A DNA stretch of 62,980 bases, filler included, from Sphacelaria rigidula (lineage: Eukaryota), in the NCBI GenBank assembly GCA_964200075.2. It is 7 parts of 7 records of this genome, joined end to end, with 100 filler letters (N's around TTAATTAATTAA, not from the genome) between each part and the next. Parts side by side here need not be neighbours in the genome. Positions count along the whole stretch, not along the records: positions 18,026 to 26,937 come from CAXNAA020009771.1; 6 more parts are not named here. One strand, written 5' to 3'. This document shows positions 4,327-54,716 of the stretch, one piece after another; the stretch's first letter is position 1, and each line of letters starts with the position of its first letter. The translations under genes were made by a program, and so were the position numbers. The notes under the pieces were generated by a model. The model searched no databases and was not told where the DNA came from. It saw nothing but the letters and a program-made list of their open reading frames with translations.

Positions 4327-4486
4327 GGGACGACACCCGAGAAGGAGGCGTCCCAACCGTCAGCCGCCGTCCCAGACTCCCTGAAGGATTTTCGAGGTAT
4401 GACGTTTTCGCGTGAAGGTAAAAACCTACATTGGGCAAACGCTCACCTAAACCTCTTTCAACGTTTCCGATACACTCTCAACTGAC

Positions 4487-7350: not shown

Positions 7351-8490
7351 CACCATTTTCGGTGGCAAAACAATCTTATTCAGCGGTGACTGGCGCCAGA
7401 CAGGTCCAATAGTCAAAAATGGTTCTGCAACTGACACCATTGACGCAGCCTTCATCTCTAGCACTTTGTGGAAAAATGTACAACGAATGAAACTAACCAA
7501 ATCACAGAGAGATAAAGACGATCCCCAGTATGCTGCATTTGTTCGGGCTATAGGGGGGGGGGGGGGGGGGGGGCACTTTTTTTTTTTNNNNNNNNNNGAT
7601 AAGACATACTCATTTGTTGCTTGCCTTAGTCGTTTGACCATCGACCACGCATCCCTTTCGAGACGGAGCACTATAGGGGAAGGGTCAAAACCAACCAAAA
7701 TAATTAACGGAACTGAATTTATAATCTTAAACAACCATAACGACGACAATCAATCTAACCACTTTCGAGTAAAATACACGACAAATTTTAGCGATCTGAT
7801 CAAATTTGTTTACCCAGATGTTACTGAAGACTCCCGTACATGGGAAATACGAGCAATATTAGCCACCATAAATAATGCCATTGACCGTTCCAATGACGCC
7901 ATCTCCGACCAACGTCCGGGAAATCACTGCTCTTTCTATAGTTCGGATTCTCTCATTTCAGACGAGTCATCATCTCACACAGCATTTTCATCGCCTGAAC
8001 ATCTCAACCAGCTCAACGTGCAAGGTGTTCCACCGCATCAGCTTCAGCTCAAAACCGATGGTCTCGTGATAATCACAAGGAACCTCAACTTTTCAGAAGG
8101 ACTCGTCAACGGCCAAAATGTGTGTTGCGCGCTATTTCACCCAATACGAGGGTAATGCAAGTTGAGCTTCTCACTGATGAAACACCCAGACCAATAGCTT
8201 TGATTCCAATGATCGGTTTCCATGCAAAGGTTGGACAGAATGGAATAAATTTTATGCGTGTCCAGTTTCCCCTTAGAACGGCTTATTCGATGACAATTAA
8301 CAAGAGCCAAGGACAAACTTTGACCAAAATAGGTTTAGACTTGAGGTCGCCTGCTTTCGCCCATGGTCAACTGTACGTCGCATTAAGCCGCGCACAAAAT
8401 CGTCAATCCATCATGTCTCCTACCTACAGACCACATCATCGACGGTAATCCACGCACAGAGAATGTTGTCTATTCGCCATTCATAGATGC
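7340..8490 (+). pseudogene. Helitron PIF1-family helicase, internally deleted, frameshifted and interrupted by an insertion
   Basis: FGGKTILFSGDWRQTGP, RAILATINNAID, PPHQLQLK..RNLN..GLVNG, RVQFPLRTAYSMTINKSQGQTL, HGQLYVALSRA. No Walker A or B motif is present. Confidence 0.92.
7557..7670 (-). mobile_element. 5'-truncated LINE 3' end inserted in the Helitron helicase, 9-bp TSD CTATAGGGG
   Basis: Matches LINE end 26180-26250. TSD copies at 7548-7556 and 7671-7679; removal restores ..RAIGEGSKP. Contains a small N gap. Confidence 0.8.
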
Positions 8491-11848: not shown

Positions 11849-12904
11849 CTATGGCGATGATCTTATTCTTCCGAGTTGGACCCGGATGGACATGAATCAT
11901 AAATGCCAGCAGCCTTTACATGTGTTGTATTCGAAGATATCTGGCCACTGAGTCATGCTACGATAGGGGGAGGGGAGGGGGGGGTGTTCGATTTCACGAA
12001 ATATGGGCTCATGCATGCTTCAGACAACGTAACACACGCGCGGTGCGGCTGTACTCGAGAAAGAGCGCTGTAAAGCAGTATGAATCAGCATTATTCATCG
12101 GGATCAAGCGCGTTCGGAGAACCGCTGCTGCTGTCAACGACGATTGCAAGTAAAATTTCGTGGAAGAAAACGGCCCGAAATATCCCCCCCCCCCCCCTGT
12201 GAAGTAGAGAAGTCTGTCACCCTTGCTGTTCGAAGACTGGAGTGATATCTTCACAGGATCAAGACTTCTCTGCTGTAAACATGCGAGTAGTAGTGTGAAC
12301 TGGGAGGATGTCATCTAAAAATTCTAAAAAAAATGCAGGTGCAGACAAGTGCAGAGTCAAATCGAAGGTAGACACCCAGGAACTTACTAAGTAGTTTTGT
12401 TCCTGAGGGCCCACAGCTGGACGTGCAGTACCGTAGATGTATCAGATGCTGAAAGTGTTTAATTAATCTCTACTGTACTGTTGAAATCCAGAGCGATGGC
12501 GACAGAGTGACCGGTGGGGGCCAGGTTGCCCTCATCATGCTACGAAAAACATTATTTGAATAACAATCACACAAATCCATCCTGACTGTGTGACCCCGGC
12601 TGATGCGCCCGCATATACCGAAAGGTGTAGACTGGTGCCCAGAATAAATGCGACAACACACACACACAACTGCTTCAATAAGTGCGTACATGGTATATCG
12701 TTCAACCCTAATCACTCCACGTCATGCAACACGACAGCGACCGGGGACGTACTTGTGAATGTAACAGCTGATGGGCAGTTGATCAGATGGGCGCTCAATG
12801 ATTCGCCCATGATATACACTCCTCGTAACCTCTGGTCTCTATCTATAAAAAACTCACTAACTGCATTCCCCATCACATAACACCCCTTTATCTTGCATTT
12901 TTCA

Positions 12905-13215
12905 ATGGTGAGATAACCAAGAGACAGTGCAAAAGCCGTGGCTGTCTCTGGAAGTGGCAATACCGGAAAATGAATGAACCCATTGTAGGCTGTCATCCAA
13001 ATGCAATAAAATCAGTAGGCTTTGGGCCGAACAATCTTAGCAAGATGCAGCTCACCCTTCATGCGAGTCGCCCAACACACCACGGCGCTTCGCGCTTGGT
13101 GATTGAGTGCAAGCCTGGTCTGGCGAAAACACGGCGTGCTCCGCCCCAGCTTTGTAGGGATGCAAGATCAATGGTGTTATGACCATGGCATGCATGATCA
13201 CGAGTACACCCCCCT
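12905..13215 (+). mobile_element. SINE-like family A, full-length copy
   Basis: Starts ATGGTGAGATAACC and ends GAGTACACCCCCC. Degenerate TSD cccctttatcttgcat / cccctttcgttgcat. Confidence 0.85.
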
Positions 13216-17228: not shown

Positions 17229-18398
17229 CTGTGGCGCGGCTAGTGGATGCACAGCACGCGAAAAAGAGACAGCAGGATCACAGCAAGAAGGGGAGGACGT
17301 GACAGTGCACACATCAACAGGGCGACGGTCGGGCAAGGCGAGGCGCGGACAGAAGGGGAGGGATGATTTCGTTAAAAGGCGCACACACGGTAGTTCGCGA
17401 GATTCCGATGATATGTGCCATGATCGAAGTATAGTGATCCCTCTTTCTGGAATAACACGGGTATGAAATGCAACCTTTGGGCCCACCTTGAGTTGTCACG
17501 CACAGCAGGTGTTACAGAGAAGCTGATCGTACCTCTTGAAGGGGTTGAGGCCACAGGCAGTAAGCATCGCGCCACTGCCCTGCCCCAAAGGGTCACAAAA
17601 ATCAGGGGCATCACACGAGGAGCCGCATTCCACGGGCTGTACTCTGTATTCCCAACATAGCTCCATTTCGGACGACCGTTGGGTTGATAATAGATACAAG
17701 CACTACGAGTCCCAATCACCAAAGCAATTAGCTCCGACGTATGCGCTACATGAGGCACACGTTCTCCTTTCTGCGTGGAACATGAAAACACGATGGGAGG
17801 ACAAGGCAACATTCGCACCCATAGGGCACACGCTTTGCAGCACGCCCCCCCCCCCCCCCCCCCCCCCCCCCCCCACCCCCCCCTCGCGCGCGCCGCTTCG
17901 CCTCATCCCCCCACCCCTCTCCCTCNNNNNNNNNNNNNNNNNNNNNNNNNNNNNNNNNNNNNNNNNNNNTTAATTAATTAANNNNNNNNNNNNNNNNNNN
18001 NNNNNNNNNNNNNNNNNNNNNNNNNATGACAAGCAGGTACCGGCGGAGGGCTGGGTTGATCCCTTGAGACCACGGACTCATCCCGAGGAAGGGGAGGGGT
18101 TCAAAGTGTAAGGGAAGAAAGACTGTCACCGTACCTATACCATAAACCGCCATACACAAAAGGAAGTCACGGACCGACAAACACAATAGACATGATGAAA
18201 CCTGAATAACGAATTTTGTTTCCCCCCAGAAACACACAATATGGATATAGACATGATATAACAAAGCTGGCCTTTCCCCCCCCCTCCCCCTTACTTTTCC
18301 TGGTTCTGTGTCATTTCCCTTCCTTTTCGTTTTTTCCTTCTTCCTTTTCCTTCTTCCTTTTCCTCTTACTCTACATCTTTTCCTTTTTTTTTGCGCTA

Positions 18399-19050
18399 TC
18401 ATAACACAGCCCAGACATGTAAATGGAATGACAAAGCTAACCCTCCTTTTTCTTTAACCTACCATAACACGGCACGGACATGGACATGGAATGAAGAAGC
18501 TAATCATCCCTTTTCTTTAACCTGCCATAACAAAGCCCGGGCATAGGCATGAAATAGAGCAGCTAACCCTCCTTTTTCTTTAACCTACCATAACACAGCC
18601 CGGACATAGACATGTAATGAAGAAGCTAACCCTCCCTTTTCTTTAACTTAACATAACACAGCCCGGACATGGGCATGGAATAGAGAAGCTAACCATCCTT
18701 TTTCTTGAACCTACCATAACACACCCCGGACATAGACATGAAATGAAGCAGCTAATCATCTTTTTTCTTCAACCTACCATAACACACCCCGGACATAGAT
18801 ATGAAAAAAAGAAGCTAACCCTGTTTTTTCTTTAACCTGCCATAACACAGCCCGGACATGGGCATGAAACAAAGAGGCGAACCCTGTTTTTCCTTCCATC
18901 TACCATAACACAGCCTGGACATAGTCATGAAATGAAGAAGCTAACCCTGTTTTTCCTTTCATCTACCATAACACAGAAAGGATGTAGAAATTAAATAAAG
19001 AAGCTAACCCTCCTTTTTCTTCGACCTACCATAACACAGCACGGATGCAG
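18399..19050 (+). repeat. 63-bp tandem minisatellite, about 10.5 units
   Basis: CCATAACACAGCCCGGACATAGACATGAAATGAAGAAGCTAACCCTCCTTTTTCTTTAACCTA recurs every 63 bp (18525, 18588, 18651, 18714 ... 19029). Confidence 0.95.
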
Positions 19051-19364
19051 GCGTAAAACAGCGAGTAAAAACAGATCTACTTCCTCATGTCAAGACAGCA
19101 ACCGAGATTCTTCCCCCCATATCATAACAAAGGTAAGACAAGAATAACACCAAAACCTAGTCATGTAAGTAATAACGTCAAGGGTGACCACCTTTCACGC
19201 AAATCGAGATAGCAAAGTACATAGCAAGTACGGATAGGGTAGGGTCATCACCTCCTCCATGTCAAATTCACATGGAGGTTGGGGTCTCGTGGTGAGACAC
19301 CCGTGAAACCTTACCGGTTTCCAGTGGGCGGTGGAAATCTGGTCAACCATTTTCCTGAAATTTC

Positions 19365-21134
19365 CAGGGATATACACGTTACACTTGCCATACCTTTACA
19401 CCTTACGTTCATGTTACGTTCTGACCGAAACGTAACGTGAACGTAAAAATCATTCTACGTGAGGAACGTAACGTGAACGTAACGTGAACGTAACGTTTAA
19501 TTTTTAAATGAAAGGTGAACGTAACGCTAAATTATTTTGACATGACATGCGTACCGTAACGTGAACGTGAAATTGCCCGAACGTTCACAACACGTATTAC
19601 GAAACGTTTCGCGTAACGTGTAACATCTATTACACGTTACGCGTGTTCTAGACGTAACACGTTACACGAAGCGTCAATTACGTTACACGCTACATGAAAA
19701 GTCATGAATACGTTACATGAAGCGGTGACACTTCAAGATTGCGATGAATTTTCAAATCCTACAAGATTGTGCTTCAATAAAAACCAGTGAGATTGGATGA
19801 CCATGGTATAGGACATATTATTTCAGCAAGTTCGCGCGCTCCGCGCCGCCTCACACATTATAAGCTATCGTGACAGCATAACATCATTACATCATAATCG
19901 TCCTGACCACACTCATATCGAGATACCGGGTGTAACGTACAGGTGCACGTGGCGATCACGTGCACCAGTACATGACATGGATCCAGGGGGGGGAACGGCA
20001 GGTCCACAACGAGGGGGTGCCGCAGTAGCCTCCAGCTAATCTCGGCCGTTGCCTACAGCTGCAGCATCTGATGCGGGACTCGCCTGCCTCGTGGGCGATG
20101 ACTTGCTGTGTGCAGTTAACATGTATGTAGTGGGCGGGGATGGAGAAGCGGTATATAGGCGGTCGATCTCGGTAGCTGAGAATTGCCCAGAACGTGCAAG
20201 GGAGTATGCAGCGGCAGCTGCTGCTGCAGTTGGAGAGGCGTACTGCACTGCACTGTACTATACTGTATGTATGCGCGCCGCAACGCTGATACTCTTCGAA
20301 GAGAATTTGCCGCATGCAACAAAGAGTGAAATGGCGCCCCACCCCGACCACAAAGGGCTGTGTGGCAAGGTGACGGGACAATAATATCATCCAAAGCCAC
20401 AAGTAGTGGCGGGCGGCCCGCCGGTCGCCGCATCCTGTTGGAAGCTCTCTACCGCGACCCATACTGCTTGCTACATCAGATGTACATGGCCTAATGCGCA
20501 CCCTGCACCTAAAAATAGATTAGATGAAAGTTCCGTTCGTCCTCATAACCCTGCGGTTACATATGCGGATTTTCAGCAACACGTCACTGTTTCGTGCAGG
20601 TACGTCATTCCCAACCAGCCTCATGGTCGTTCTGGTGGCCCGGTCCCAAAAGGGTCAATACATGTATCATGTATACAGATCAAAATGAATGAACGATACA
20701 TGGTAGAGGAAGTAACGTTACACAACAATCAGAAAATTCGCCTACGTTCAAACATACGACGGGCCAACGTAAGCGTCACGTACACGGTGACGTCACGCGT
20801 CACACGACAAGTTACAACGCCTTGAACACTGGTCAATGAGCCGCGACATGCACAGAATGAAACGTTACATTCGAACGTTACACGTGTCAACGTAACGTTA
20901 TACTAGACGTTACACGTTACATGCAACGTTTCATATTACCTTACATGTAACGTAACGTAACGTTAACTTTGTTTATGTAGTGAACATAACGTGAACGTAA
21001 CGTTAAAATTTCAAATGAAACGTTCGCGTAACGTCAATTTGTTTATAAGTGACATACGTCACGTAACGTGAATGCCATTTTTTTTCACGTGATGAACGTA
21101 ACATGAACGTGATTGTGTAACGTGTAGGTTCCTG
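19365..21134. mobile_element. Non-autonomous hAT-type DNA transposon (1770 bp)
   Basis: TIRs CAGGGATATACACGTTACAC / GTGTAACGTGTAGGTTCCTG. Perfect 8-bp TSD GAAATTTC at 19357-19364 and 21135-21142. Dense ACGTAACGTGA subterminal repeats at both ends. Confidence 0.9.
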
Positions 21135-21929
21135 GAAATTTCCGACATCAGGTGTAAAACGTGCCTAGTGAAGGGAAGGGGTGGATAATGCATGACATAA
21201 ACGTCAAGACCTACTGCACTCACGAAACAAACACCTTACCAATGACCGGCTACATGACCCACGAGAACGAGCACCAAGCGATACGTAGACTTCTTGAGAT
21301 CTTGAAGGATAGAAGCCGGTACAAAGTGTGGGGTAATCGTTGGCCAAGCTTTCGGCAGCGAAGGTCTACCCGGAAGCATTCGTGGAGTAGCGACCCATAG
21401 TGAACCGTACACGGAGTGCGAAAAGTGATGTACGGGACATCCCGATGTGAGGAAGACCTCGTATTATGGAAGCCGCCCTTGAACCTTACGCAGCGAAAAT
21501 GACCTCCCTGGAGGAAGGTAACCAGTGCGACAGCGGGGCAAGAAGATAGAAGATACACTCGTGGGAGAACTGGATGGTTCACCATGAAGGTCGCCTGGCA
21601 CAAATGTGGGGTACTTGTGTCAAAGGTGAAACTTGGCTTCATGCTACGAGCCCGTGTTGGAGGCATCATTTNNNNNNNNNNGTTCACCATGAAGGTCGCC
21701 TGGCACAAATGTGGGGTACTTGTGTCAAAGGTGTTGAACTTGGCTTCATGCTACGAGCCCGTGTTGGAGGCATCATTTAGTGTCGATGAGCCAGCAAAAT
21801 AACTGAAAGGCACCAGATCCACATCAAGTACTAGGATTGGGATGTCCTAGTACGTTGATTCTATCCCGCCAATACACTCGAAATGATTAGGCTGGAGATT
21901 ATCTCGGAAGAGATCGAGAGAGAGGCGGT

Positions 21930-24900
21930 GAGGAAGGGCGGATGGAGAACTAAAGAGTGGACGGGTAAAGCATTAGTAGTGCTGATATTCGGAGTTCATC
22001 GCGATACTACGAGAATAGAGTTTTAAAGAAATGCGATGAAGTTGGATTACACTGTTCGACAACAGGAAAAATAGAAAGGGGGGGAGAACACTTCTGAGTC
22101 ACAGTAGAACAGAGCGCGAGTAAGGAGTGGTGGAGGATAGAGACAAGTAATGTGTCGACATGGGTTAGAAGGGTAGGATGAAAAGTATGCATGACTAATG
22201 GAACAACAAGCCCAAGACGTAGTCCGCAGGGAAACGAAGGGGGAGAGAGGCAGGAACAGGTAAGTGCCCGGAAGGGGAAGGCGATGGGACATGGCGGCCC
22301 GAAGCAAAGGGACAAAGATCAAACCGGAAAAGGAAAGCACAATCAATCGAGGGAAAGTAGAAGTAATAGCGACAGAGAGAAAAAAGTAGACAACAGGAGA
22401 GCAGATAATGATTCGGAAAAAAAAGTTGAGAATAGGATCGTGGAACTTGTGTGGATTCGCCACAGACAAGCGCAAAATAAAAGAGATAACTCTACGAGTG
22501 AGTAAACGTGACCTATATATAGTAGAAATCCAAGAGTAATGGGAGAAAAGGGGGGGCGGGGCGGAAATAGGATGCAAAATTGAAGAGTTCGCGTGGATAG
22601 GGAAAGAGTGGACGTGACAGAACCCTACCAGCCGGGGAGCGGGGGGAGTAGGACTTTTGTCAAGGAATACCTTTGTGACATTATAGAAGTGATCGACGAC
22701 ACGAAGTTCGACGAAAGCATAGGGATAAGGGTACCAGGAGAGCGGGGAACGAAGGACCTTTCGTAGCGAACATCTACATGCCCCCAGAGTCGAAGAGTAG
22801 GGTGAATGATATACAGCGGAGGTTTGAAGAGATAGTAGCAGATGTACATTAATATAAAAGGCAAGGAGAAGGAACGTTAGTGAGAGATTTTAATGCAAGG
22901 GGAAATAAGAAGAGCACGAATGGGGGTAGAAATGCTGAAATATCTTGAGCGTAACGAGATGAAGACGCTGAACGATAGTGAACAGAAACCAGAGGCGCAA
23001 TAGACATGCACTAGCAGATGCAAAAACGAGAGAGAACGCTCCGTTCTTGACTATACAGTGGTAGAGCATGGAAATAGTAAGAAAATGGACGTACAAGTAT
23101 GCGCGGAGGACGTGGAAACTGCATATTATTGCCTATTATGGACAGAAAGCCAACAGACGACAGCTAAAGTTAAAAGGCGGGGTAGGAAGTTGTACAAACG
23201 GAGAGCCGATAAACTAGATATGGTAGAAAAACGACAAGAGTTCCAAGACGAGATGGCCAAAAATGCAGCGAAATTTTCCCAGTTGTTAAAACGCGTCGGT
23301 ACAGTTGATACCGAAGTGGAAAGGGATAGGGCAGGAGAGAAGACTATGATAGGATGGAAGGGAGCAGTTGGTCAACAAAACAGCGAGTAAAGTCATAGGG
23401 AAGAAACGGATCGTATGCAAGACACTTTCTACGATAGCCCCCCCCAAAAAAGTGCATGGTTTTGGAAGGCAAAATCTTCACATAAATCGAAATGGGAAAA
23501 GCCGAGCGGAACGAGCAGCTGGGAATTCCCACGCTTGGGTTCGTTTCAGCCAATGTCGCCGATATGAGGGGCTTCATGCAGCCTGAGCCCCAGCATCAGG
23601 CGCTGTATGGCCATTTTTTTGTGACACTTTTGGGCTAGTTTTTGGGGGGGCTATCGTAGAAGGTGTCGCAACAGAGCAATAAAATGGTGGGATGATGAAG
23701 TAAAAGAGGCTAGAAGAGTAAGGAGAGAGGCCCACGCAAGATGCATATCGAGTAAAACGTCGGCAGGATGGGAGGAGTACACTGAAGCTCGAAAGGAAGT
23801 GAAAAATATGGTACAGAAGAAAAAGAAGGAAGAATGGGAAGATGTAGTGGACAAAACAAATGAATATTTCGATGGCAGGATGAAACAAATGTGGGTAGGG
23901 ATAAAAGGGATAACGAGAGACCAGGCAGGAAAAATAGACAAGGAAATAGCCACACTACGGGCACAGAACGGTATAACGGTCAGTAGTTCGAAGGGGGAGA
24001 GAGAAGTGCTAGTCGAGCACTCCCGTAAACTAGGAACACCAAAAACTAACACGAAGTTCGACATGATATTCGAAAAATAAATTGACGCGTGGGCAGAGGA
24101 AAATCTAAAGACGTCAAAACGAGAAGATAGTGGCTCGAAAGAGTTGCAGAGAGAGTTCACCAGAGATGAAGTGAAGGAGTGCGTAGCTAACATCAAGAAC
24201 AGAAAGCCAGCAGGGGTAGACGAAATAGTGAATGGATTTCTAGAGTACGGGGGAGAGGGAATGATTACCGTGATGGTTATGCTGTGTAACTGGATATGGG
24301 AAAACGAGTACACACCCAAGAGGTGGAGAGGAGGAATCGTAGTCAACTTTTTCAAAAAAGGAAAGAAGGCCGACCCAGGAAGGTGCCGAGGGATAGCGCT
24401 ACTGAGCACGGTAGGGAAAACGTTCTGTAAGATTCTGAACGATAGAGTGGGAACGATGCTAGGAAAGGACGAACAAATCAGCGAAGGACAAGCATTATTT
24501 ACACCCAACCGTAGTTGCGTAAGCCATGTTTGCACATTAGGTAAGGTTATTCAAGGTAGGAAAGACGGCAGGCTGACAACGTAGTGTTTAATTCTGGACG
24601 TGCAAAAGGCTTATAACACAGTATGGAGATTTGGGCTATGGAAAAAGTTGTCGGAAGCTGGGATCAGAGGAAAGATGTGGAGAATGGTAAAGAAGACGAC
24701 ATATTGTACCAAAAGTGCTATGATGCTAGACGGGGAAATAACGAAATATTTTCATAGTTTACAAGAAGTTGCACAAGGATGTACGCTATCATCCAATCTA
24801 TTCAAGGTATTCATTAATGGCCTGATAATAGCAATAGAAGCAGCGAAGCAACGGCTCAAGGTCGGTAAAGACATGATATCAAGATCAATATTCGTGGACG

Positions 24901-26270
24901 ATTTTGTGGGGATATCAAGAACAGCAGAAGGACTACAGAAATAGATAGACACGGCGCTAGAATACATAAGGAAATGGAGAGTGACAGCGAATGTCAACAA
25001 ACGCACGGTACTCGTCGGTAACGAAGATAAGGAAAATCTGGCAGAGTTCAAATGGAAGTGGGGAGAAAAGGAATTGCCGATTGTAGACCAGTATACATAC
25101 TGTACCTTGCCGTAGAGATCTAGAAAAACTGTTCTTGTGATGCACACATAAATAAAGCAATATAAAAGGGTAGGCATAGATAGGCAGGCTGGACGTGATC
25201 ATCAGAGACTCGTACCTAGATACTAGGATTGAGAGATGTATCCTGATGAACGTGATTGTATCAAAGCTGGAATATGCAGGAGAAGTATGGCAGGGGAACG
25301 TGAAGTTGGTGAAGAACTTGGAAACAGTACAGATGGCAGCAGCTAAGGAAATACTTGGGTGCTCGAAATTGACGAGTAATACAGCACTGAGAGCAGAGTT
25401 GGGAATATATTCACTTGAAACTAACAGAGACATGTGAAAATTGCGATGGCAATATAGCTTGAATAACATCCAGAGAAAGAGATTGCCAACTATAGCTGAC
25501 AAGGCTGTATGGAAGAAAAGTACGAAAGGGCAGGCTGGAATAGGGTAGAATAGCGCAGTCGAGAAAGTATGGAAGGAGATAGGAGGAAACCAAGACAAAA
25601 TACCGTCCATAAATAGACGAAGGCGCGAGGTACAAGACAAAAGTAAGCGACATGCTAGAAATCAGGGGAAAATGAGCGCTCAGACGCAAAATAGACGAGG
25701 AAGAACACCTGAAGATATATGGGGGGCTGAGAGAGGGGATAGGAATGGAAACATAATATTTGCAAGGCCCAATGGACGCGGCGAAAAATTGGAATCTGCG
25801 CTTTCGGGTGGGGGACCTGGATCTGCCGGAAAGAATGAAGATATTCACCAGTAGTCGAGAGGAGGAGAAAGTAGATGCGCAGAATTGCCCCTGTGGCAGA
25901 GCAATAGAGAGCAGAAGTCATATAGTGGTAGCATGTGAACTATACAAGGAGGAACGAGACGTGCTAGAGGGGGAACTGCAGGACGTGAACGAAGGTGGCA
26001 TGGAATCGTATGATGCATTAGACAGTAGCGAGAAAATGATGGCTATGCCAGGAGATAGATGGTGGCCACAGACGGCGAAACAGGACGGGGGGAAAATATG
26101 TAAACGGTTTTTGTGTAATGTATGGAAGAATCGTAATGAGCCCCTAAATGTTGAAGGTGTTTCTATTAGGAGTAGGAACGGTGCTCCGTCTCGAAGGAGA
26201 TGCGTGGTCCATGGTCAAACGGCTAAGGCAAGCAATAAATTAGTACACCCCCCCCCCCCCCTCCCCTCCC
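21930..26270 (+). mobile_element. Degenerate non-LTR retrotransposon (LINE): APE endonuclease, reverse transcriptase and C-terminal CCHC, with poly(C) end
   Basis: EN remnant WNLCGF..IQE (~22441-22540). RT motifs KPAGVDEI, RGIALLSTVGKTF, LDVQKAYNTV, VAQGCTLS, FVDDFVG. Zinc knuckle CPCGRAIESRSHIVVAC. Many stops and frameshifts; 5' boundary approximate. Confidence 0.95.
23421..23667. mobile_element. MITE (247 bp) nested in the LINE ORF
   Basis: 24-bp TIRs GACACTTTCTACGATAGCCCCCCC / GGGGGGGCTATCGTAGAAGGTGTC, flanked by GCAA. Removal restores IVCNRAIKWW. Related copies at ~51193-51418 and ~28323-28570. Confidence 0.9.
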
Positions 26271-27120
26271 GGGCGGCATTTTTTCGAAAATTGTCATGAT
26301 TTTCTTCTCTCTTGTCAATATATTCTCTTTCCCTTGTACAAAAAATGAAATTCAACAAACCAAATAACCATCTATTCTCAACCAACCAATGTATGAATGA
26401 ATGCATTATTTAATGAATTTAATACATTCCGACCTGCTATATGTATTGTTGAAGATATCAGTAAGAAAGCACTGATAAAAACCGAAAAGTCTGGTGGGCT
26501 GTGCAAGGTTAGTATATTCGCTGCTGCTTCTTGCCCGCTCTGTCCCGATGACCTCGGATGCCGGCCACGCTCACACACATGTATACACACGAGCGCACGG
26601 TAGCGACAGCCTGCAGCCAAAGTAGCAACCTTATCTCAGGCCTTGCCAAGCTTACCCGGGCTACTGGTAGGTACTCGAGGCACACGACACGGAACATGAT
26701 CCCATAAATGTGATCACGGTAAGTGATGAGCTTGGGGGGGCGGCGTGTCCCCCATGTGATCGGTCTCCATGCCAAGGATCTCTGTATACAGCAGCTGACT
26801 GCATTCGCTAACGCCTCGGCACTAACCTAGGGGACAGCAGGCTGGGTGTCCTCCCCCTCATCTCATAAAAACAGCCAATCATCTATGTTGAGGATGGTGC
26901 TTTTGATTGAGGATGAGAACCCGGAGGATTAAAATCTNNNNNNNNNNNNNNNNNNNNNNNNNNNNNNNNNNNNNNNNNNNNTTAATTAATTAANNNNNNN
27001 NNNNNNNNNNNNNNNNNNNNNNNNNNNNNNNNNNNNNATGAGTTGCTTTTTTGTCTGGTATCGCCACTCCCAGAGACAGCCACAGCTTTTACACTGCCTC
27101 ATGGGGGCGGTGGTGGTGGG

Positions 27121-27210
27121 GTACTTATTTATCGCTTGCCTTATAATAGTCGTTCGGCCTTTGACCACGCATCCCTGTCGAGTCGGAGCACTGTTCCTCC
27201 TACTAAAAAA
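27121..27210 (-). mobile_element. 5'-truncated LINE 3' end
   Basis: Reverse complement matches 26165-26250. Followed by a C-rich tail and abuts a partial family A SINE (27038-27105). Confidence 0.75.
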
Positions 27211-27621: not shown

Positions 27622-29358
27622 GAATGGAAATGGGGTGGGGGAGGGGGCGGCAATATGGATAGCTTAGATGGTGATGATCGTGGGGGTGAAGAGGGAGGGA
27701 GTGGGGAAGAAGAGGAGGAAGAGGAAGACGAGGGGGCGTCCTTTATGGCGGTCGGAGGAGGTTGGCTTAGTTTTTGATTTTTTTGCGCTGTCACTGAAAA
27801 CATGATTGGATAACCTTTTTTTTCAGGCAAGATTCTGGAGATGTTTTTACAGCACGATACATGCGTAGTGTATACTATACACATCAATGGCCGATAGAAT
27901 GATGAAAGCATGGTTGTCCATTTGCACGAACACACGAACCTCACAAGCAAGATGTTAAGTTTTCGCGTTGCAGTAGCATATTTTTTGCTATGACCTTTTA
28001 GTCCGTCATGTCCGCTTATTTACAAAGCCACGTCATGGTTGAAAGTAGATCGTATGTACGTGACCTCAAATGGAGTACACCGTGGCCAGAGTGTTTGCGA
28101 CTCTCAGAATCTGACAGGCTGTTTTCGAGTAGTAGTGCAGCATCCTACATATAGCCTGAGCTTGCGACCAGGCACAAATACAACGCGCGGCATATGGGCA
28201 GCGCCGCACACCAACGGATACTACTTACCCACATCGACGCACTCGAGACAGGATAATAAAAGTCTAATCGTTTTTGTCGACTCTTCACGATGCGACACGG
28301 AGTTGGATATGAACCCACGACTGATGCTGCGTTAGCCCCCCCCCTCCCGCCTACCCAAAATGGCTGGTTTGAGGTGGCAAAATGTACACGTAAATCGAAG
28401 TGAAAAAAACGAGCACCCCGAGGAGCTGGGAACTCCCATCCTTGGGATCGTTTCCGCCAGTGTCGTCCTGTGAGGCGACTCATGAGTCTAAAACCAGCTA
28501 TCGTGCGCTGTATGGCCATTTTTTTCGAGACAGTTTCGGGGCTGGTTTATGGGGGGACTGTCGTGGCATCTCTCCCACCCTTTTTTTGCGACGGACGTGA
28601 GGCTGGGAGATGATTTCGGCGAGGTTGAGAAGTGCAGACTGGAACAGCGCGACAGGCTGTCATGCAGTTTTGTTGATGGATCAGGTCGTTCTGCGTCGTT
28701 TGTTTTTGCGGAGTCTTCTTCAGCAAACGTTGCTGTCTTGCAGTAGTAGTAACAGTAGGTGTGTAGACGAAGCAAGTCAGCTAAATAAAAAACTGAGAAC
28801 TGAAAGTGGGGTGAACGATCATGTGCTAATGATGATAGCGCAGACTAATGCCGAGATAGCTCCCCCACAAAAAGTGCACCGGAGACCGTCCGATAAACCG
28901 GCTGCGATTCCACTATTGGGCTCGTTTGCAGCAATTTCGCCAACATGAGAGGCGTGTAGCAGTCCGAAATCAGCTACTCGTATAATGCCCGAATGAGTCG
29001 CGTCGTGCAGCACGAAACAAGCTTTAACGGCATGCATGATCATCGCCTCCATGCAATTTTTTGGCCGGTTCGAGAAGGGAGTATCTCGGCAGCAGTCCGC
29101 ATCGGCTGGAAAGAAGTGGTTGTGGCGCGTGTCGTTTGGTCTTATCGGACAGCCTGACGCTTGACGGTCGACGCTGATTCGAAAAACGCGGCGGAAATAA
29201 AAATGGTTCGACGAACCCACCCCTCAAGAGACAAACGGTTTCATCGTTTTTTCAGGAGGATGGCAATACGTGCATGGGCATTCTCTATGTGCCCACCTGC
29301 GCCGTTTCTATGCTCTGTTCTTGACGACAGTAGAATTTGTCGCACCCATAGCTACACT

Positions 29359-29640: not shown

Positions 29641-31952
29641 GTGCGTATCTTTGTTGGTGTTTTTTTTTGTTGTGTTCCAATCAAGCTGCTTCTTTATGGA
29701 TGTGGTTTTGTGTGGGTGTCCGTCTGGACATGTAGCGGAAAAGGGGCAGCTTAGATGCTACATCATGCTGCGGACACTCCGTGCTCCTATTATGCCTTTA
29801 GTCAATCACGAGCCATTGCTCGTACGTAGGCTTCTGGTCAGGGTAATTTCACCGCGTGGCGACGTGTGAACTTTGAAAGCTAGACGAACGACTTCAATTG
29901 AACGACTGCAACCGACGATCAGAGTTTAGTGTCACGTTTTTTACCACCCCTCCGAAAAACAACACACGGTGAGATCAACAGACTCGATGCCGCATAACAG
30001 TATTATCATGTTAGCCTCCAACCATAGATAACGTTCATGACTACCTCCCCCAAGAACTCTGACCCACCTTAACCCATCGTAGCGCACAAACTGAAAATCG
30101 ATATTTTCCAGCAGCTGGCCCAACGGATACAGAAATTGTACGAGCGCGATGATCATTTCATTCTGAACCTATAAATAACATATGCCAATCACCCTCACAC
30201 CCTGATAAGGCATGGTGGCGGCTATCGTTCAAGGCCGAGATCATGCTCTTGCGCCCACAAAATGGTGCCGCTTTTGCTCCTCGTCGCTTCGTCTGTACCT
30301 TAGCTTTTTCAGTTATGACAACGGTGTATTATGTTGGAACTTGATGCACTTCTGTGTATGTTTCTCAGCCGTACATTGAGACAGAGCAAGTTGTCTCATG
30401 AGGTGCTGTGGAGGTAAAAGATATTGTGATCTCTGCCGTTCGTTTGAGCATAGAATATGCGGCTGAAATGATCATTGAAAAACATAATAACCCAGGCGGT
30501 ATCGCCGCACATGGCTGTTCATGGCGAATTCGAGCTCTCTGGGCCTCACCCCACACTTTCGGTGTACATTTTTGCTGTACTTTGCACGTAAGGCAGTGTA
30601 CCACCTGGAGTTTTCATTCAGGCTCATTGTTATCGCCATTGTTTTCTCAGAGATCTCTGAACTTTTCGGCGTTTATTACAGACTCAGTGATCAGCGTTCT
30701 CGAAAATAAATCGGCTTGATTTTTTCTCTGAACCGTCACGTTTGGAGAAGTCTGGATGCTTCAGACTGCAGCGCAACACTTCGCAGAGATGCCCTGTGAA
30801 CACGCCGTGACGCTCGCAAGCGTGCGAGAGTCATCAGGAATCTTGACAGTAATACCATGGGCCATGTCGCAGAGTGAAAAGCGCCGTGGGTTGGCGGTGT
30901 CCATCTTCTTGGACGGTGTGTTCGTCGGCAGTGATGGTTGAGCCATTGGGGTCATGTACGGTGATCGCCGTTTGCGGACATACACACTTTCGAAGTGAAG
31001 AGCAGAAACAGTCCAGTAGTGAACTACGTTGGCTGCTGTGCTGCTAGGAGTGTATGCTACCGCACCATCTGTTAAGAGTATAGCTGGTGGTGCGGCGGCT
31101 GTATCTGTGCATACAACTGACAGAAAGCAAGCATGCTGAAAACTTTGCGCTGGGCTTTCTACATTTGGTATTTTTATTTGTGTGTACTGCGCAGGGGAAT
31201 TCTCATTTTTTTGTCAGCACAGCAGTATGCAAAACGTAGCTGCATAGGCACAATTCTTACTATTAGTCCAGTCACGTCAAGTGGGACTTTCAACCATATT
31301 GTCGACGCGTCATCGGACGTAAACCACGACGTTTTGTCATCGAGTTCCTGCAAACCCATAATTTTTTGCCACAAGACGTTCGTGATGTCAAGGTATCATC
31401 CGTTGCCCCGATGACGTAGCAAGCAGTGGAGCACCAGAGCAGCGGTCTCTCTCTACACCGCAGAGCTGGTGCGAGCAGGGCGGGTGGTCATGAACACCAA
31501 AGCAGCGACAAAATTCGCTTCACCCTCCCACACACACACTGGTCAATGGTCTTATGACTATGGCATGCATGACCATGAGTATACTCGTCACACGCCACCT
31601 CATTATGCGACACAGTGTCTATTATACTTAGCCCCTCACTCAGGTAGTATATTCCACCCGTCCTCACAGTCGATCCCACTTGCGTGCTGTAGTTTGCCCT
31701 GAAGGAACGAAGGTCAAGTGTGCAGCATTGCTTGATCTTTTCGGGACCGGACTCCCCACAATGGTATGCTAGTGGCACTTTTCCCCACTTTCCCCCCACA
31801 ATCGTGTGTTAGTGGCAGATAAATGTCCATTAGTTTTGTTTTCAAGTCACAAAAAAAGGTGTGAATTGGCATCATTTTGACCTGAAAACAAAAGGAATGG
31901 ACACCTGCCACTAACACATGATTGTGGGGGAAAATGATCCCAAAAGGGTTAA

Positions 31953-39400: not shown

Positions 39401-42400
39401 TTCGTAGCCCAACGCCGGTAAACTAGCCTCACATTTTTTTGTCTATTACATACTATTGTCCATATATTGTTCCATTATCCAGGGTGTCAGATGATTCCAA
39501 CCATGCTGTGGCGGGACCTCGCATTTTAGCGGGTTGCTTCGTCGCGCGACCACCTGACTCCACAAACATACGGTGCGTTTCGCCCCTCCCATCCCGTGTT
39601 TCAATGTTCTACTGCGCTTGTCCTCTGTAGGTGGACCTCCTGGAGCTGATTGTTTGCGGTAATATCGTCGGGCTCGACATTCCCGTGAGGGTCGTGCAGC
39701 ACGAGATCTGGCGTCCGCACATTCTGGAAACTACGGCGGATGACTACAGCTCCGACTGCGACGCCGAAGCCCTGCCGGCGATGATGGTTACCTATCGCCT
39801 CGCCGGTGTGGACGGAGAGGCGACGGAGGAGGTGGTGGATTCTTTGGTGGACAGCGACAGCGCGGCAGACCAGGACCCGGAAGTGAAGTTCGGGATCGCA
39901 AGGAACATTGCGGAGGTAAGGCGTGATTTTGGAGATTCTTCTGGGTGACGAGATGAATCGTGCGAAGATGTGAGGTGAAAGAAGTTGTCAACGGGATGTT
40001 CGCTTGCCTGAACATCTACCTCCAACCCTATATTGGTTAAATAATTGAAAGATGGATTGTTTGTCGCACTTTAAGTGACCCCCCCCAGGGATCCAGCCAA
40101 CATAATTCCGCATCGGGTACGGTATGGGAGGCTTACAGAAAACCGGTACCGGCAATCGGGTAACCTTTCTAGGGTATACCCGCCCCTCGGCTTGGGGTAA
40201 ATTTTTCGTACAAAACTCACAGAACTGTCGGGTAAGGGTATGTGAGGCTTACAGAACTCACAGAAACTGTCGGATAGGCTATGGAGGTTACACAGAAAAC
40301 CGTACCCGCAATCAGGTTTCTTAAAAACAGCGTACCCGTGCCCCCCGGTAACGGTACGGGAGTCTTACAGATCTTACAGAACTATCGGGTAAGGGTATAA
40401 AAGTCTTGCAGAGATCACAGAAGTGTCGGGTACCGGTATGAAAGTCGTGCATGAGTCACAGAATTGTCCGATACGATAAATACGCGGAAAAATACCCTGG
40501 GTATACAGAAAAGCGTACCCTACAGAAGACAACCTTGGGATGTTTGTTTATGATTATGTTTCCTTTTTATCTTCTTTTTTTGTTGCGCATGTTTTCGGTC
40601 AGCAGGAGGGCGGTTTGCCGCTCTTGCTCTGCCTGGCGCGTGCTCCTCCTCGGACCGACGTCCCGCGGTTGACACCTTCCGCATCGACGGCCACGATGTC
40701 TGATCATGACGATCCGAACGGTGCCAGTTCTTCATCTACGTTGCAGCTCCGAGGCAGCGCTGAAGGCAGGGGTGGTGGCTGGGAGGTGTTTGCATCCGCT
40801 GTGTGGTTGTTGAGACGATGCTGCATGCTGGCCGCGAACCGTGCTGATCTCTTGGCTCTAAAGGTGATGGGTCGCTTTATAAGAAGGAGAAGTGAGAGGG
40901 GGGAGGGGGGCGTACCCATCTGTTACTTGCCTTAGTCGCTTGACCATTGACCACGCACCCCTTTCGAGACGGAGCACTGGTCCTACTCCTAATAGAGACA
41001 CCTCCAACACTTAGGTGCTCATGAAGTCTCTTTCGTACATTACACGAAAACCTTTTGCATATCTGGGGGGGGGGAGAAAGTGATGAGTGGTTGTCGCCAG
41101 TACATCACAGAACTATCGGGTTTCGCCTGAAGGCGCCAGTCGAGGGCGAAGACCGGTTGTGCTGGGGTCGATGTTCAAGTGGATCATGATCTGTTTGTTA
41201 TCTTACGTCACAGCCGGCAACGGCAAACTAGCGATGTCGGTACCGAAACAAATGATGCACGAGCCAGGTGTTGCCTGATGCCGTACATATGTGTACTCCA
41301 TATTATTAAGTTCACTTATCAATATCGGTTGCTTTCATACATGATGACAATGTTCGTGGTGTTGGATTCAATAGATTTGTAGTATTTGAACACAAGACTT
41401 GTACCGGAGAAAAACCTGCTGTTGCTATGAAGACTGCTGCATCAAAGCAAGCGCCCTTGATGTCATCAGCGGCATCACTATCCGATGTGACGATGCGACA
41501 CCTTAATATATCCCATCTCCCATCTGTCGGAAACTACTTTTTTTTTTGCTTGTGTGGTGTGGGGCAAATCAGGCTCCTGGTGTGCTGTTGCACCAACTGC
41601 TAGAGGTTCTGCACAGAGGAGCGTCGGCGGGGAGCACGGGGGCCGCAGCTGGGGGCGGGAATGGAACGGCGGGTGCCGAGCAGTGCCCTCCGGGAATAGT
41701 GGAAGACTTGCTGGCTATGATGGAGCAGCTCGGCCAGGTAATAACGCGTGGAAAAATTCGAAGGAGGAGCAGTTTGGTGTTAACTCAAAGGGGCCGACGT
41801 CAGTCAAATGACAGGGTGATGAGTCAGGGTCGTGGATGAATGTGAAGAAAAAAAAAGGCGCGAAGCGATGCATGGTTTAGCTATCATCGCGGAGCCGACG
41901 GGTTTTGCGGAAGACGGACGAATGGGATGCGCTATTGCTAAAAAAAATCGCGACTAAGGCCACTCCTTATGACGGACCAAAGTAAGAACGTCCGGAAAAA
42001 GTGCTATTTTGGAGCTTTTATGTCGTGAGAAGGCTAGGCGGATTTTGACACCTTGGAGTGCCTTACTGTACTCGTTGAGACGGTTCCAGCACACCTGTAC
42101 GTTTTTCCAGTGGCCGCACTTTCTGTTTTGGCCAACGTTGCATTTTTCTCGGATACCGGTCAAGTCCATACAAACCTCGGATTTTTTTCTTGACTTGACA
42201 GATCTCCGAGAAAAAGTCAAGTTTGGACGAGAAAGAAAACTGCGGCCACCGCAAAAACGCACAGGTGTGCTGGAACCGTCTCAACAAGTGCGGCAAGGCT
42301 ATCCAAGGAGTCAAAATCCGCCGAGCTCTCTTTTAGGCCGTAGAACGGCGCACAAGCTCCGAAAATGTACTTATCCATTTTTTGTTTGCCATAAAAGAGC

Positions 42401-44898
42401 GGGGCCTGACGGACGAAATTTGCTGACTTGATATACATATACACATGATGTTTTTTTATAGTGTCTCAGGCTCGTTCAGTCTCGTTTGCCAGAATTTTTT
42501 TCTCTCAGCTTGCCTCCCCTATCCCCTCTTCCCTCCCCACCTGCCACGACGACCGGCTCTCCCCGTATCTTCGCGGGCATTGGGTATGGGTCGGAAATTT
42601 ATGTCGTGTCAGGACATCGCGAGTACGGCGGAAGTGGATTTGCCGAGCCATCGGGCATCCCTCGACGCGATAGGAGAGGGAACGGCGGTGGCAGCAGAAG
42701 CAGCAGCAGCAGCAGCGGGCGTTAGTGACGGTATGGATGTGGAAGGTGAGCTTTTATTCTCACTAGGGCAGCATCAACCTCAATCCTTCACCCCCCTCGC
42801 TGTATCCCTAGGGCTCAAAAGGGGGATGAGGTCCCCACAAGCGCCCCATGTAATACCCACCGTGTTTAGGGTGGTGTCTTGCTCTGAATGTTGAAGGAGG
42901 TGTACTCATGATCTTACATACCATAGTTATGAGATCGTTGACCTCGCATCCCTATAAAGCCGGGACGGAGCACGCTGGGTTTTCACCAGACCAGGCTTGT
43001 TATCAATCACCAAGCGCGAAGCGCCGTGGTGTATTCGGCGAGTCGCATGGAGGGTGAGCTGCATCCTGCTAATATTGCTCGGCTAGAAACGTACTGATTA
43101 TCTTGCATTTTGGATGACAAGCTACAATGAGTTGCTTCATTTTCTGGTGTCGCCACCTCTAGTGACGGTCACGGCTTATACACTGCCTCGCGGGTGTCCC
43201 ACCATGAATGTTGAAGGGGGTTGATGAATTCCCCAGGACTCACTCACTTCAGGATTTATTTTCCTTTCTTTTTTGGTTGAGATTTCGTCCATAACGTCGG
43301 TTATTTGACTACTCACAATTTCGTTTAAAACAGGGACAGAGAGATGCTGCGACTAGGATTCGAACCATGGTGGTTCTCAAACTTCCTGCGTAGGTCGCAG
43401 GTTACGGGCGACAGGAGCACAGAAGCTCTAAGGTCAAAATTCCAGGAAAAACGATTGCGGGCTCGTGTCGGCTGTAATTTGCAACCTACGCAGAAATTTT
43501 GATAACCGAGACTGTGGTTCAAATTGTACTCGCGAAATCGCTCCCTGTTTTCAACGAAGTGCAACTCATTGAAGAACCGATTTTATGGACGAAATCCCCC
43601 CCCCCCAAAAAAAAAAAAATGAAAATTAATTTCTAAAGCGAGCCCAAATTTTTCGATAGGTGCGTGTGGCAGTCTCTCCCTTCACGTGGGGGTAGGATCC
43701 ACTTGAAAGATAAAATGGGGTAGAATCATGGATGGAAGTGGAATGCATTTGTGACTACCAGCATCCATCATTTTTTGGGGGGGGCATGGATCGTTTGACC
43801 AGGAAGTAATGGTTGCAGTTTTTTTTTCCTACTCTAATATTTTGGTCTACAGACTCTACTGCACCTTGGCCGCAAGATATGCGAAATGTGTGCCCACAAC
43901 ATATTTAATGATGATATGCATATCTTGGTATGTTTCTCTCTCGAAGAACAAATGAGAGCTTGACCTCCCTCCTTAATCTCTCACGATAATGCCGCTAAAA
44001 AACCTGGATTCTACCCGACACAGGCACTTCTACTTCTACTCCTACTATCGCTATCGAGAAGAAGGGAGGTGGAGGTGACGACATGGAGGATGACGATAAG
44101 TGTGTCGAACAGGGGGCTGAGCAAGGGGGCGGACGTGGCACGATGGACGAGGAAGGGGAAAGCAGCATCAAACATTTATCGTTCCTGTTCGAGGCGCTGG
44201 AGGAGCCGGCTCTGATTGATGTTTTGGGCCGCACGCCGGCCCTGGCCCAAGCGGTGTCACGGCTATTGCCGTTCTTGACGTACGGAAGGACAGCCGCCGC
44301 GAGGTTGCTGGCGGCTAAGTTCGCGCAGGTGGGTTGTTTTACGTATAATATCGTGCTTGTCGAAGAAGAGAATCTGCCAACTACGGGGACCTGCTCCGCG
44401 TTCACGTTTATATTGACAACATGTTATACGATCAGCTTCACACTGTCTTGCTTGCTTGATGCAGTCAGTCGGTCGTGTGTCATGGTGTGTTTGTGTGTTT
44501 GTGTGTGTTTCGTCTAGTGTCCGTATCCTGGATGAGCGAGAGAAGTGAAGCACGCGAGATACACACCTTGTTTTCGCTTGGTGTAGGTGTGTGTGTATTG
44601 TATTTTTTCTTCGAACAAAATACCCTTCGTTCTTATGTGTGTGTGTTTCTTCTGTTTTTGCAATGTGCTTTGCTCGTTTTTTTTTTTTTTTTTACATCCA
44701 TGCAAACTGACAAAAAACTAAAGGTGGTGCTTTGGAAAGACGTTGTAGCCGATGCTTTGGAAGCCGAGGCCAGCGGTTCCCAATCTGCGCCACCGATGTC
44801 CCCGGCCCAGCTTCGGCGGAGGTGCTTCATGGACGCGGCCGAAGGGATGGGGTCGGGGCGCTCTGGCAAGGTCATCAGGGATTGCCTGTTGGAAACAG
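36429..44898 (+). CDS. UBR4: E3 ubiquitin ligase UBR4 / BIG, nine internal exons of the C-terminal region
   Basis: Exons 36429-37144, 37441-37864, 38269-38505, 39631-39915, ~40603-40863, 41573-41737, 42613-42745, 44024-44328 and 44724-44898, all GT-AG and phase-compatible. Conserved TQE/EFFRGSLSKNP, LRDKIATDL, LLELIVCGNIV, VTYRLAGVDGEATEE, RLLPFLTYG. Confidence 0.92.
38717..38963. mobile_element. Intronic MITE with imperfect ~45-bp TIRs
   Basis: TTCAAGGGTGTGTTGGGTGGGG ... CCCTACCCAAGACACCTTTGGA. Confidence 0.6.
40113..40525 (+). repeat. Intronic degenerate tandem repeat (~40-45-bp unit, TCGGGTA.GGTAT..GAGGCTTACAGAACTCACAGAA)
   Basis: The motif recurs several times across the interval. Confidence 0.7.
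40911..41064 (-). mobile_element. 5'-truncated LINE 3' end in a UBR4 intron
   Basis: Reverse complement matches LINE 26095-26250. G-runs on both sides and a degenerate flank duplication ggaga(a)agtga. Confidence 0.8.
42007..42365. mobile_element. Foldback/MITE with long internal inverted repeats
   Basis: GGCGGATTTTGACACCTTGG..TTGAGACGGTTCCAGCACACCTGT pairs with ACAGGTGTGCTGGAACCGTCTCAA..CCAAGGAGTCAAAATCCGCC. Confidence 0.8.
42901..43204 (-). mobile_element. SINE-like family A, full-length copy with 16-bp TSD
   Basis: TSD TGAATGTTGAAGG(A/G)GG at 42885-42900 and 43205-43220. Confidence 0.9.
43248..43638. mobile_element. Intronic MITE with imperfect TIRs
   Basis: ..TTTTTT..GATTTCGTCCATAA pairs with TTATGGACGAAATC..AAAAAA. 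Confidence 0.6.
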
Positions 44899-46941: not shown

Positions 46942-47050
46942 CGAGCCTGGTTCGGCGAAAACCCGGCGTGCTCCGTTCCGGCGTTGTAGGGATGCGAGGT
47001 CAACGGTCTTATCACTATGGCATGCAAGATCATGATTACACCCCCCCCTC
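46942..47050 (+). mobile_element. SINE-like family A, 5'-truncated copy between C-runs
   Basis: Matches the 3' ~100 bp of family A. C-rich flanks on both sides. Confidence 0.8.
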
Positions 47051-53364: not shown

Positions 53365-54409
53365 CTGTCGTTGTATCATCACGGTAGTAGCAGACGAGGG
53401 CGAGGGCGAGGGCGGGGCGGGGCGGATTGGCAAGGGCGAGGCGGATTGGCGAGGGTGCGGATGAAATATTCAAGTACAACAAGGGATAAATTACTGTAGG
53501 ACACAGGGAACACGTGCACTTTTTTTTTACAACCATCGCACTAGCCCTTGTGTTCAGACCCGCTGGCCGAGATCTTAAACATTCTCGGGAAACTATGCAC
53601 AGAAACCGTCAATCCTCTGGGAGGAAGGACTGTTGAACCGTGGAATGGTACCCAATTCCGACTGAGATCGACGATATTTGATAATCTGGGTAATACACGC
53701 ACATTTTGTTTGCGTTTGTTTTTGCTTCATTCCAGTTTGCCCCCTGTTTTCTTCTCTTCTTCCCTCCTCCATCCTTGGGCTTTCTCGAGTTTCCTTCAGC
53801 GGTTGTTCCATTCTCAGGCCGCTTCATTTAGACTGAGAAAAGTCTCCAAGGAAAGACATTTTGGACGACTTTTCTCAGAAACTTTCTCCAGAGAAATCAG
53901 TTTTCAGAACCCCAGCTTATAAAAAACAAAAAAATCCTGGGGATTTGTACACCCGAGGCCATCATCTAGCNNNNNNNNNNNNNNNNNNNNNNNNNNNNNN
54001 NNNNNNNNNNNNNNTTAATTAATTAANNNNNNNNNNNNNNNNNNNNNNNNNNNNNNNNNNNNNNNNNNNNCCTCCTCCTTCTGCCTTTTTTTTTTTCCTC
54101 CTCTTCCCCGTCCATCAAGAGATTTCCCCCCCCCCCCCCCCCCCCCAACCTCTCCGAAACAACATTTATGAAGAAAAACTCCGACGCTAGATATCCGGAG
54201 AGATTTGCAGTCCCTCGTGAACTGATCCACTGCCTATCCTGGTGGAGAAATCTGCTCTCACATTTTCTGGAGGTTCCCCTCCCTGCCCCAATTGGGTTGG
54301 CGTCGGTTCGCACAGTAACCATGATGGTGGTCGAGCTAGATCATGTTGTGCGGGGTGGGAGAACCTCAATTTTGCGCGAAGGGGATGATCGTACTACGTA
54401 GTGCTCAAA

Positions 54410-54716
54410 TGGTATGACACCCATGTGGCAGTGTGTGAGCCATTGCTGTCTCTGGGAGTAGAGATACCAGAAAATGAAGCAACTCAGGCTGTCATCCATA
54501 TGCAAGATAATCAGTGCGCTTCGGGCCGAACAATCTTTGCAGGATGCAGCGCATCCTTCACGCGGCTCGCCGAACTCGTCACGGCGCTTCGCGCTTTTTA
54601 ATCGAGTGCGAGCCTGGTCCGGCGAAAACCTGGCGTGCTCCGTCCCGGCTTTGCAGGGATGCGAGGTCAATGGTCTTATGACTACGGCATGCAAGATGAT
54701 GACGAGTACACTCCCC
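54410..54716 (+). mobile_element. SINE-like family A, full-length copy
   Basis: Starts TGGTATGACACCCATG and ends GAGTACACTCCCC. Confidence 0.85.

Follow-up and report, generated by a model that had tools for sequence, protein, structure and literature searches.

An RTE-X-like LINE and its non-autonomous partner insert into and duplicate C/G runs in Sphacelaria rigidula

Introduction

In target-primed reverse transcription (TPRT) the nicked target strand primes reverse transcription, and human elements of this kind use A-rich sites, L1 being an example of relaxed poly(A) recognition. The elements closest to those described here are tabled for Ectocarpus, where RTEX-1_Ec32 (5867 bp) is annotated as "single EN-RT ORF; (C)n 3'" with a "C-rich" target-site duplication (TSD) and RTEX-2_Ec32 as "(C)n termini/TSD" (PMC12477816, Supplementary Material 3), both being 5.5-5.9 kb long with copies in the thousands (PMC12477816). 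The non-autonomous RTEX-N1 and RTEX-N2 of Ectocarpus are also tabled with "(C)n 3'" and a "C-rich" TSD, and RTEX-N1_Ec32 is given as a 607-bp element with a 60-bp 3' end in common with the LINE, weak 5' homology to RTEX-2 and tandem copies (PMC12477816). In the main text of that study the term "C-rich" has no match and the C-run behaviour does not enter the discussion (PMC12477816), so that the (C)n end is already catalogued as a spreadsheet note only. More distantly, green algal RTEX families are reported to end in short repeats, (CA)n, (CAA)n or (CCAT)n, and not in poly(A) (PMC3747384), slippage on the 3' repeat is described for UnaL2 (PMC1636434), and the L1 site consensus, as discussed in one account, may reflect priming as much as cleavage (PMC12809410).

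Here we analysed a stretch of 62,980 nt (the window), made up of several contigs joined by N linkers, from the 244-Mb, 27,214-contig assembly of Sphacelaria rigidula (GCA_964200075.2). An initial annotation of the window had proposed a poly(C)-tailed LINE/SINE system that primes at G/C runs as a mirror of L1 and that had no known precedent, and had itself named an earlier description of such behaviour as what would count against it. The Ectocarpus entries for RTEX-1, -2, -N1 and -N2, with their "(C)n 3'" and "C-rich" TSDs, are such a description (PMC12477816). Our literature searches, whose scope left out Repbase, Dfam and most subscription papers, so that more precedent may exist, returned no paper in which G-run priming is tested or treated as a mechanism.

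Results

The window contains one long LINE copy and three short LINE 3' fragments:

18120-26247, + strand: near-full-length, decayed copy of an RTE-X-like LINE, about 89-92% identical to the genome consensus
18318-19121, + strand: 63-bp tandem array in the LINE 5' region, also in genome copies L067, L073, L086 and L087
19364-21135, unstranded: DNA-transposon-like insert in the LINE, unrelated to it, with CCAGG...CCTGG ends and a 6-bp AAATTT duplication
23421-23667, unstranded: MITE inside the LINE ORF, with a 4-bp GCAA duplication and a C-run in its terminal inverted repeats
26182-26247, + strand: conserved ~65-nt LINE 3' terminus with a GAAA-loop hairpin, partly common to family A
26248-26270, + strand: 3' C-tract (C14 TCCCC TCCC), tail and/or TSD; 5' target copy not recoverable
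7607-7671, - strand: 65-nt LINE 3' fragment in a Helitron PIF1 frame, with TSD CCCCTATAG
27121-27206, - strand: LINE 3' fragment with an interrupted C-tract at its end and, immediately after it, a family A fragment (27038-27105, - strand)
40912-41064, - strand: LINE 3' fragment with C10 on the 5' side and C6TC6 on the 3' side

The span of the long copy was reckoned after setting aside the two DNA-transposon-like inserts (19364-21135 and 23421-23667), and within it a 5' region with the tandem array leads into a single broken APE-RT-CCHC ORF. The copy is without the ~70-nt 5' head found in other copies; a different short repeat, also seen in L041, L053, L080 and L087, stands in its place at 18026-18119. 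The 63-bp array varies in copy number between the window and L067, L073, L086 and L087, and does not keep an open frame. The larger insert is 1.8 kb long and non-coding, with many GTAACGT-type repeats on both arms, and a 79-nt duplication flanking a 10-N gap at 21595-21760 is probably a scaffolding artefact. The MITE belongs to an abundant family of ~250 bp, with a C-run in the terminal inverted repeat and a 4-bp duplication, that also occurs at 51193-51411 and 28357-28564.

The majority consensus of the LINE comprises 5,971 nt plus the head of ~70 nt, the variable tandem array included, and its ORF reads as 943 and 370 amino acids in one frame with a single stop between them, encoding an endonuclease, a reverse transcriptase (RT) and a CCHC finger. 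The TGA that ends this ORF lies ~5 nt upstream of the C-run in the consensus, and the stop is lost in the window copy. None of the three broken LINE fragments in the window gave a Pfam domain (0/3); the domains were established from longer copies and from an intact relative of 1360 amino acids (P0001) with Exo_endo_phos and RVT_1 (Pfam). The endonuclease domain of this relative models as an APE fold (model pLDDT 92, with LINE-1 EN as the top match in a fold search), and a sequence search against solved structures gave a weak exonuclease III match only. Many Ectocarpus proteins are among the homologs of the RT, with up to 61% identity across the query, which makes a brown alga the most likely host. 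The LINE is most likely of the RTE-X type, a label that rests on the best-blastp notes given in the Ectocarpus study (PMC12477816). The copies are all old, with a median identity to consensus of 89% over 99 alignments and a best value of 95.5%.

At 26241-26270 the + strand reads TAGTACA, C14 (26248-26261) and TCCCCTCCC, which bears out the end in TAGTACA plus C(n) first reported for this copy; the end of the family, to be corrected accordingly, is ...AAATGAGTAC followed mostly by G (66/94; A 6, C 21, T 1). Truncation at the 5' side clusters at the base of the 3' hairpin, 29 of 88 3' fragments being 60-68 nt long. The three truncated copies of the initial annotation are present, all on the - strand and a few bases from where they had been placed (7607-7671, 27121-27206 and 40912-41064), and the claim that they end in C-runs holds for the second, with its interrupted tract, and for the third, and less cleanly for the first, in which C21 (7553-7573) stands apart from the element, across 8 nt, a 10-N gap and A11GTG. 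That first fragment breaks Helitron-like Rep/PIF1 helicase frames (Helitron_like_N, PIF1) at 4451-8155 on the + strand, and imperfect 41-bp tandem repeats lie at 40206-40463. Of three TSDs that had all been read as C-initial, CC(C/T)CCTTCAACATTCA beat a shuffle control (score 18.5) and CCCCTATAG is apparent by eye, unscored because of the 10-N gap in the copy first placed at 7557, whereas CCCCTTT..TTGCAT is imperfect and scored below 9.

The partner, family A, is represented in the window by seven copies whose 3' end is preserved:

29-321, + strand: RTEX-N1-like, 5'-truncated, C-tracts on both sides
12900-13208, + strand: copy with C6 at the 3' end and an imperfect TSD
31541-31583, + strand: 3' fragment without a C-run, the exception
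42901-43205, - strand: copy with the confident TSD CC(C/T)CCTTCAACATTCA and zero C's beyond the target
46942-47040, + strand: 99-nt 3' fragment, C-tracts on both sides
50993-51105, - strand: 3' fragment with a long C-tract before it and a second family A piece (50875-50977) after it
54286-54707, + strand: internally deleted copy with part of the LINE-like 5' head, ending CTCCCC, then GG A10

All seven 3' ends lie, to within a few bases, at the positions first given for them. Six of the seven finish with C's, either as a run or as a short tract with interruptions, so the reported C-run ends of family A stand except at 31541-31583. The family A consensus (561 nt) joins a LINE-like 5' head to an unrelated middle and a LINE-like 3' end. 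Its last ~50 nt, hairpin included, are 79-90% identical to LINE ends, with A as the terminal base after AAATGAGTAC in 71/94. Close to the family A 5' end lies a 41-nt block that is homologous to the 5' ends of three full-length LINE copies, with 31-33 of 41 positions identical. ARAGORN found no tRNA genes in seven family A loci, and Rfam, known ribozymes included, gave no match in eight. With a LINE-like head and 3' end and no tRNA or Rfam match, family A is, as judged from its sequence, not the SINE it had been called, in the classical or Pol III sense, but a bipartite non-autonomous LINE derivative. In some full copies (L046, L053, L054, L120 and L139) ~47 nt of the 3' region are repeated at the start of the element, and 5' truncations cluster ~40-46, 93-101 and 299-309 nt from the end. 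The 41-nt head, as found in L073, L086, L087 and the family A head at 54286-54312, contains a weakly folding GCGTCG/CGACGC hairpin whose loop, by eye, could pair with a downstream GCCAC in a possible pseudoknot; Rfam gave no match for this head, which may serve as a promoter or as a self-cleaving motif.

To survey the genome, we gathered 3' ends both from loci located by queries that lacked the tail and from 600 kb chosen solely by position (10 kb at the start of every hundredth contig, C101 to C6001). After de-duplication 193 ends were obtained, three of which were dropped for N's or short flanks, leaving 190 (95 LINE, 95 family A). CCCC was present no more than 13 nt from the 3' end in 83/95 LINE and 78/95 family A copies (161/190 together), against 3.2% of random 12-mers, and other homopolymers were rare at these ends (GGGG 0/190, AAAA 5/190, TTTT 3/190). 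The position-only sample gave the same picture, with CCCC at 23 of 25 LINE and 29 of 35 family A 3' ends. On the 5' side, the nearest 25 nt of flank contained CCCC in 105 of the 151 copies shorter than 700 nt (background 6.5%) and GGGG in two. Five relatives from metagenomes (80-88% identity) included four that reach the 3' end, all of which read TACG plus a C-run, and contigs from three public runs, which include two organisms besides the best-matching one, had loose ends made of C-runs on both sides, past the 3' end and ahead of the 5' truncation hot spot. The genome-wide collection of 3' ends and TSDs that had been recommended therefore shows C-run enrichment, and the C-run association of the LINE and family A is confirmed throughout the genome.

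The C's that follow an element could be its tail or the duplicated target. A C-constrained TSD scan over 159 testable copies, with shuffled flanks as the null, returned 13 TSDs scoring at least 12 (1.2 expected) and 27 scoring at least 9 (6.1 expected). Twelve of the 13 confident TSDs carried a C-tract of at least 5 on the 5' copy; relative to it the 3' tract was longer in five, equal in one and shorter in seven. Empty sites came from the MITE, a recurrent target of both families (8/159 ends). Unoccupied MITE ends, true empty sites in an element unrelated to the LINE, already carry the C-tract, so that at the occupied ends (3 of 19 in the 600-kb sample) the run predates the insertion. Both halves could be seen at five occupied ends; in four of these the 3' tract was, by eye, no longer than the 5' tract, the fifth having 24 versus 7. 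Copies also sat in the tail of an earlier copy in 21/151 cases. Together, the MITE empty sites, the TSDs and the paired tract lengths given below show that the target run comes first and accounts for most of the "tail"; the 3' C-tract is largely explained by duplicated target, and a poly(C) tail like that of L1 is not supported.

The question of what brings the elements to these runs can be approached through the tracts themselves, with the caveat that the copies are old, the assembly is fragmented and long homopolymers are unreliable. The endonuclease alone could do so by a G-run-specific nick, with an RNA that stops at GAGUAC(G/A) and 3' C's that are all duplicated target or later slippage. 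This agrees with several TSDs that lack extra C's (42901-43205; L105) and with a conserved terminal purine beside a free number of C's. Copies with many extra C's, however, and the weak correlation between 5' and 3' tract lengths (rho 0.10, n=150) fit C's in the RNA more easily, and we consider targeting by the endonuclease alone unlikely. Large 3' excesses in single copies, 21 versus 4 in the Helitron copy, 24 versus 7 in L112 and 14 versus 6 in L084, require RNA-templated C's or slippage, and these few cases, with the 39 of 150 copies that lack a 5' tract (median 3' tract 9, some 5' junctions being misplaced by BLAST), make some RNA C's or slippage likely.

In the poly(C)-tail proposal proper, the RNA would receive non-templated C's from a nucleotidyltransferase or from an enzyme of the element itself, and this poly/oligo(C) tail would choose G-run primers in the way that poly(A) chooses T-runs in L1. 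Such an RNA would likewise account for those excesses, for the 39 copies with a 3' tract only and for the 78 of 150 in which the 3' tract is the longer, and the L1 site bias may itself, in the account cited above, originate at priming (PMC12809410). Yet the excess is small and not significant (n=150; median 10 at the 3' side versus 8 at the 5' side, p=0.10; maximum 30), and no long tail beyond the duplicated target, as L1 would leave, emerges from this comparison, which old copies and the assembly weaken. Given a 5' tract of at least 4 (n=111), the 3' tract was shorter in 59 copies and longer in 45; it was shorter in 7 of the 13 confident TSDs, the longest pure run was 29 and most were below 12. 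Read-through from the donor would moreover supply C's without a new enzyme; 3' transduction, which would bear such read-through out, was not found (1/152 copies called, null 0.7%, the sole case lying within a local repeat). A tailed RNA is thus quite unlikely, and the poly(C)-tail half of the original idea is unproven and not needed, whereas its targeting half is supported.

C/G runs of at least 10 nt in the sample adjoined an element in the expected orientation in 36 of 102 cases, compared to 0 of 73 A/T runs, a fraction that may be inflated since the sample over-represents contig starts (15/60 begin with a C/G run). Runs of at least 12 nt numbered 62 for C/G versus 21 for A/T. The suggestion that the elements lie behind many long C/G runs is upheld to this extent: the LINE and family A both seek and duplicate C/G runs, but are not the cause of every one. 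The broadest form of the proposal, that an element RNA whose oligo(C) end is non-templated or made by reiterative synthesis pairs with nicked G-runs as a C/G counterpart of poly(A) priming and is a main generator of long brown algal C/G homopolymers, appears improbable. An artefact (two-colour poly-G or collapsed repeats) or expansion of C-runs after insertion is extremely improbable, for although a C/G run of at least 5 opens 15 of the 60 contigs sampled and run lengths are unreliable, the TSDs are scored, like ends occur in independent assemblies and runs, (C)n ends appear in the curated Ectocarpus library as well (PMC12477816), and the strict element-strand polarity, without one GGGG end among the 190, rules out poly-G sequencing error.

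Discussion

The account that we favor, at a probability of roughly 0.68, is that an RTE-X-type LINE (~6 kb) and family A (~560 bp) enter existing C/G runs by TPRT. The ORF protein would bind the 3' hairpin region common to both, and, as the junctions suggest, the endonuclease would nick the G-rich strand inside or at the edge of a G-run. A TSD starting with C's implies, by established TPRT, a primer ending in G's. The RNA would carry a few C's after GAGUAC(G/A), for which read-through into the donor flank is the simplest source, and we infer that these C's pair with the 3'-OH G-run primer in variable register. A second-strand cut ~5-15 nt past the run would then duplicate the C-run and a little unique sequence, as is seen in the callable TSDs, so that C(n) after the element would be mostly duplicated target, at times lengthened by variable register or slippage. 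Each insertion would double a C-run, and new copies would therefore nest in old ones. Against this account, a TSD is callable in just 13 (score at least 12) to 27 (at least 9) of 159 copies, the lengths of the 5' and 3' tracts barely correlate, 39 of 150 copies have a 3' tract but no 5' one, some copies have a large 3' excess of C's, the copies are old in an assembly whose long homopolymers are unreliable, and 3' transduction was not found.

Matched point by point on descriptions, the element is a further instance of the kind catalogued in Ectocarpus. Compared with the tabled RTEX-1 and -2_Ec32, the S. rigidula LINE has the single endonuclease and RT ORF, the length (5,971 nt plus ~70), the (C)n 3' end (83/95) and the C-rich TSD (12/13); it differs in that its copies are old and broken and in its 63-bp 5' array, which the Ectocarpus table does not mention (PMC12477816). 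Family A resembles RTEX-N1_Ec32 as described there in its size (~600 bp), in the ~50-60 bp of LINE 3' end, in the LINE-like head, in its tandem or nested copies and in the C-rich TSD, and differs in the clear homology of its head (the 41-nt block) and in the extra ~47-nt 3' duplicate upstream of the head in some copies (PMC12477816).

With UnaL2/UnaSINE and the green algal RTEX families, as reported, the system has in common a 3' hairpin, a short terminal repeat in place of poly(A) and length variation by slippage (PMC3747384, PMC1636434); here, however, a single nucleotide, C, is repeated and insertion is into a C/G homopolymer. Like mammalian L1/Alu, it has an endonuclease of the APE fold, as modeled, and pairing of a homopolymeric RNA end with the nicked strand is likely the common logic in light of what is described for L1 (PMC12809410), but there is no long tail, the LINE and its partner have a specific 3' sequence in common, the ORF is single and the target is a G-run, not a T-run. 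Because that specific 3' end with its hairpin is common to the LINE and family A, the arrangement is of the stringent RTE/L2 type and not the relaxed L1 type, and the proposed mirror of L1 is not supported as stated.

What is added here to the catalogued (C)n end is the targeting of existing C/G runs, the nesting of copies in tails and the adjacency of about one third of the long sampled C/G runs to elements, which may help to explain why long C/G runs outnumber long A/T runs and why the assembly breaks. Target choice by the endonuclease could be cleanly separated from RNA-primer pairing in an active relative, a question that is still open for L1 (PMC12809410).

One of the Ectocarpus RT homologs closes with a nearly identical C-terminal peptide, and a similar 'GCVVNG..AM' end is found in more distant LINE proteins of 35-48% identity (P0013-P0019, P0024, P0026, P0027, P0044 and P0048). 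These peptide ends suggest that a 3' RNA element overlapping the end of the ORF may be widely conserved.
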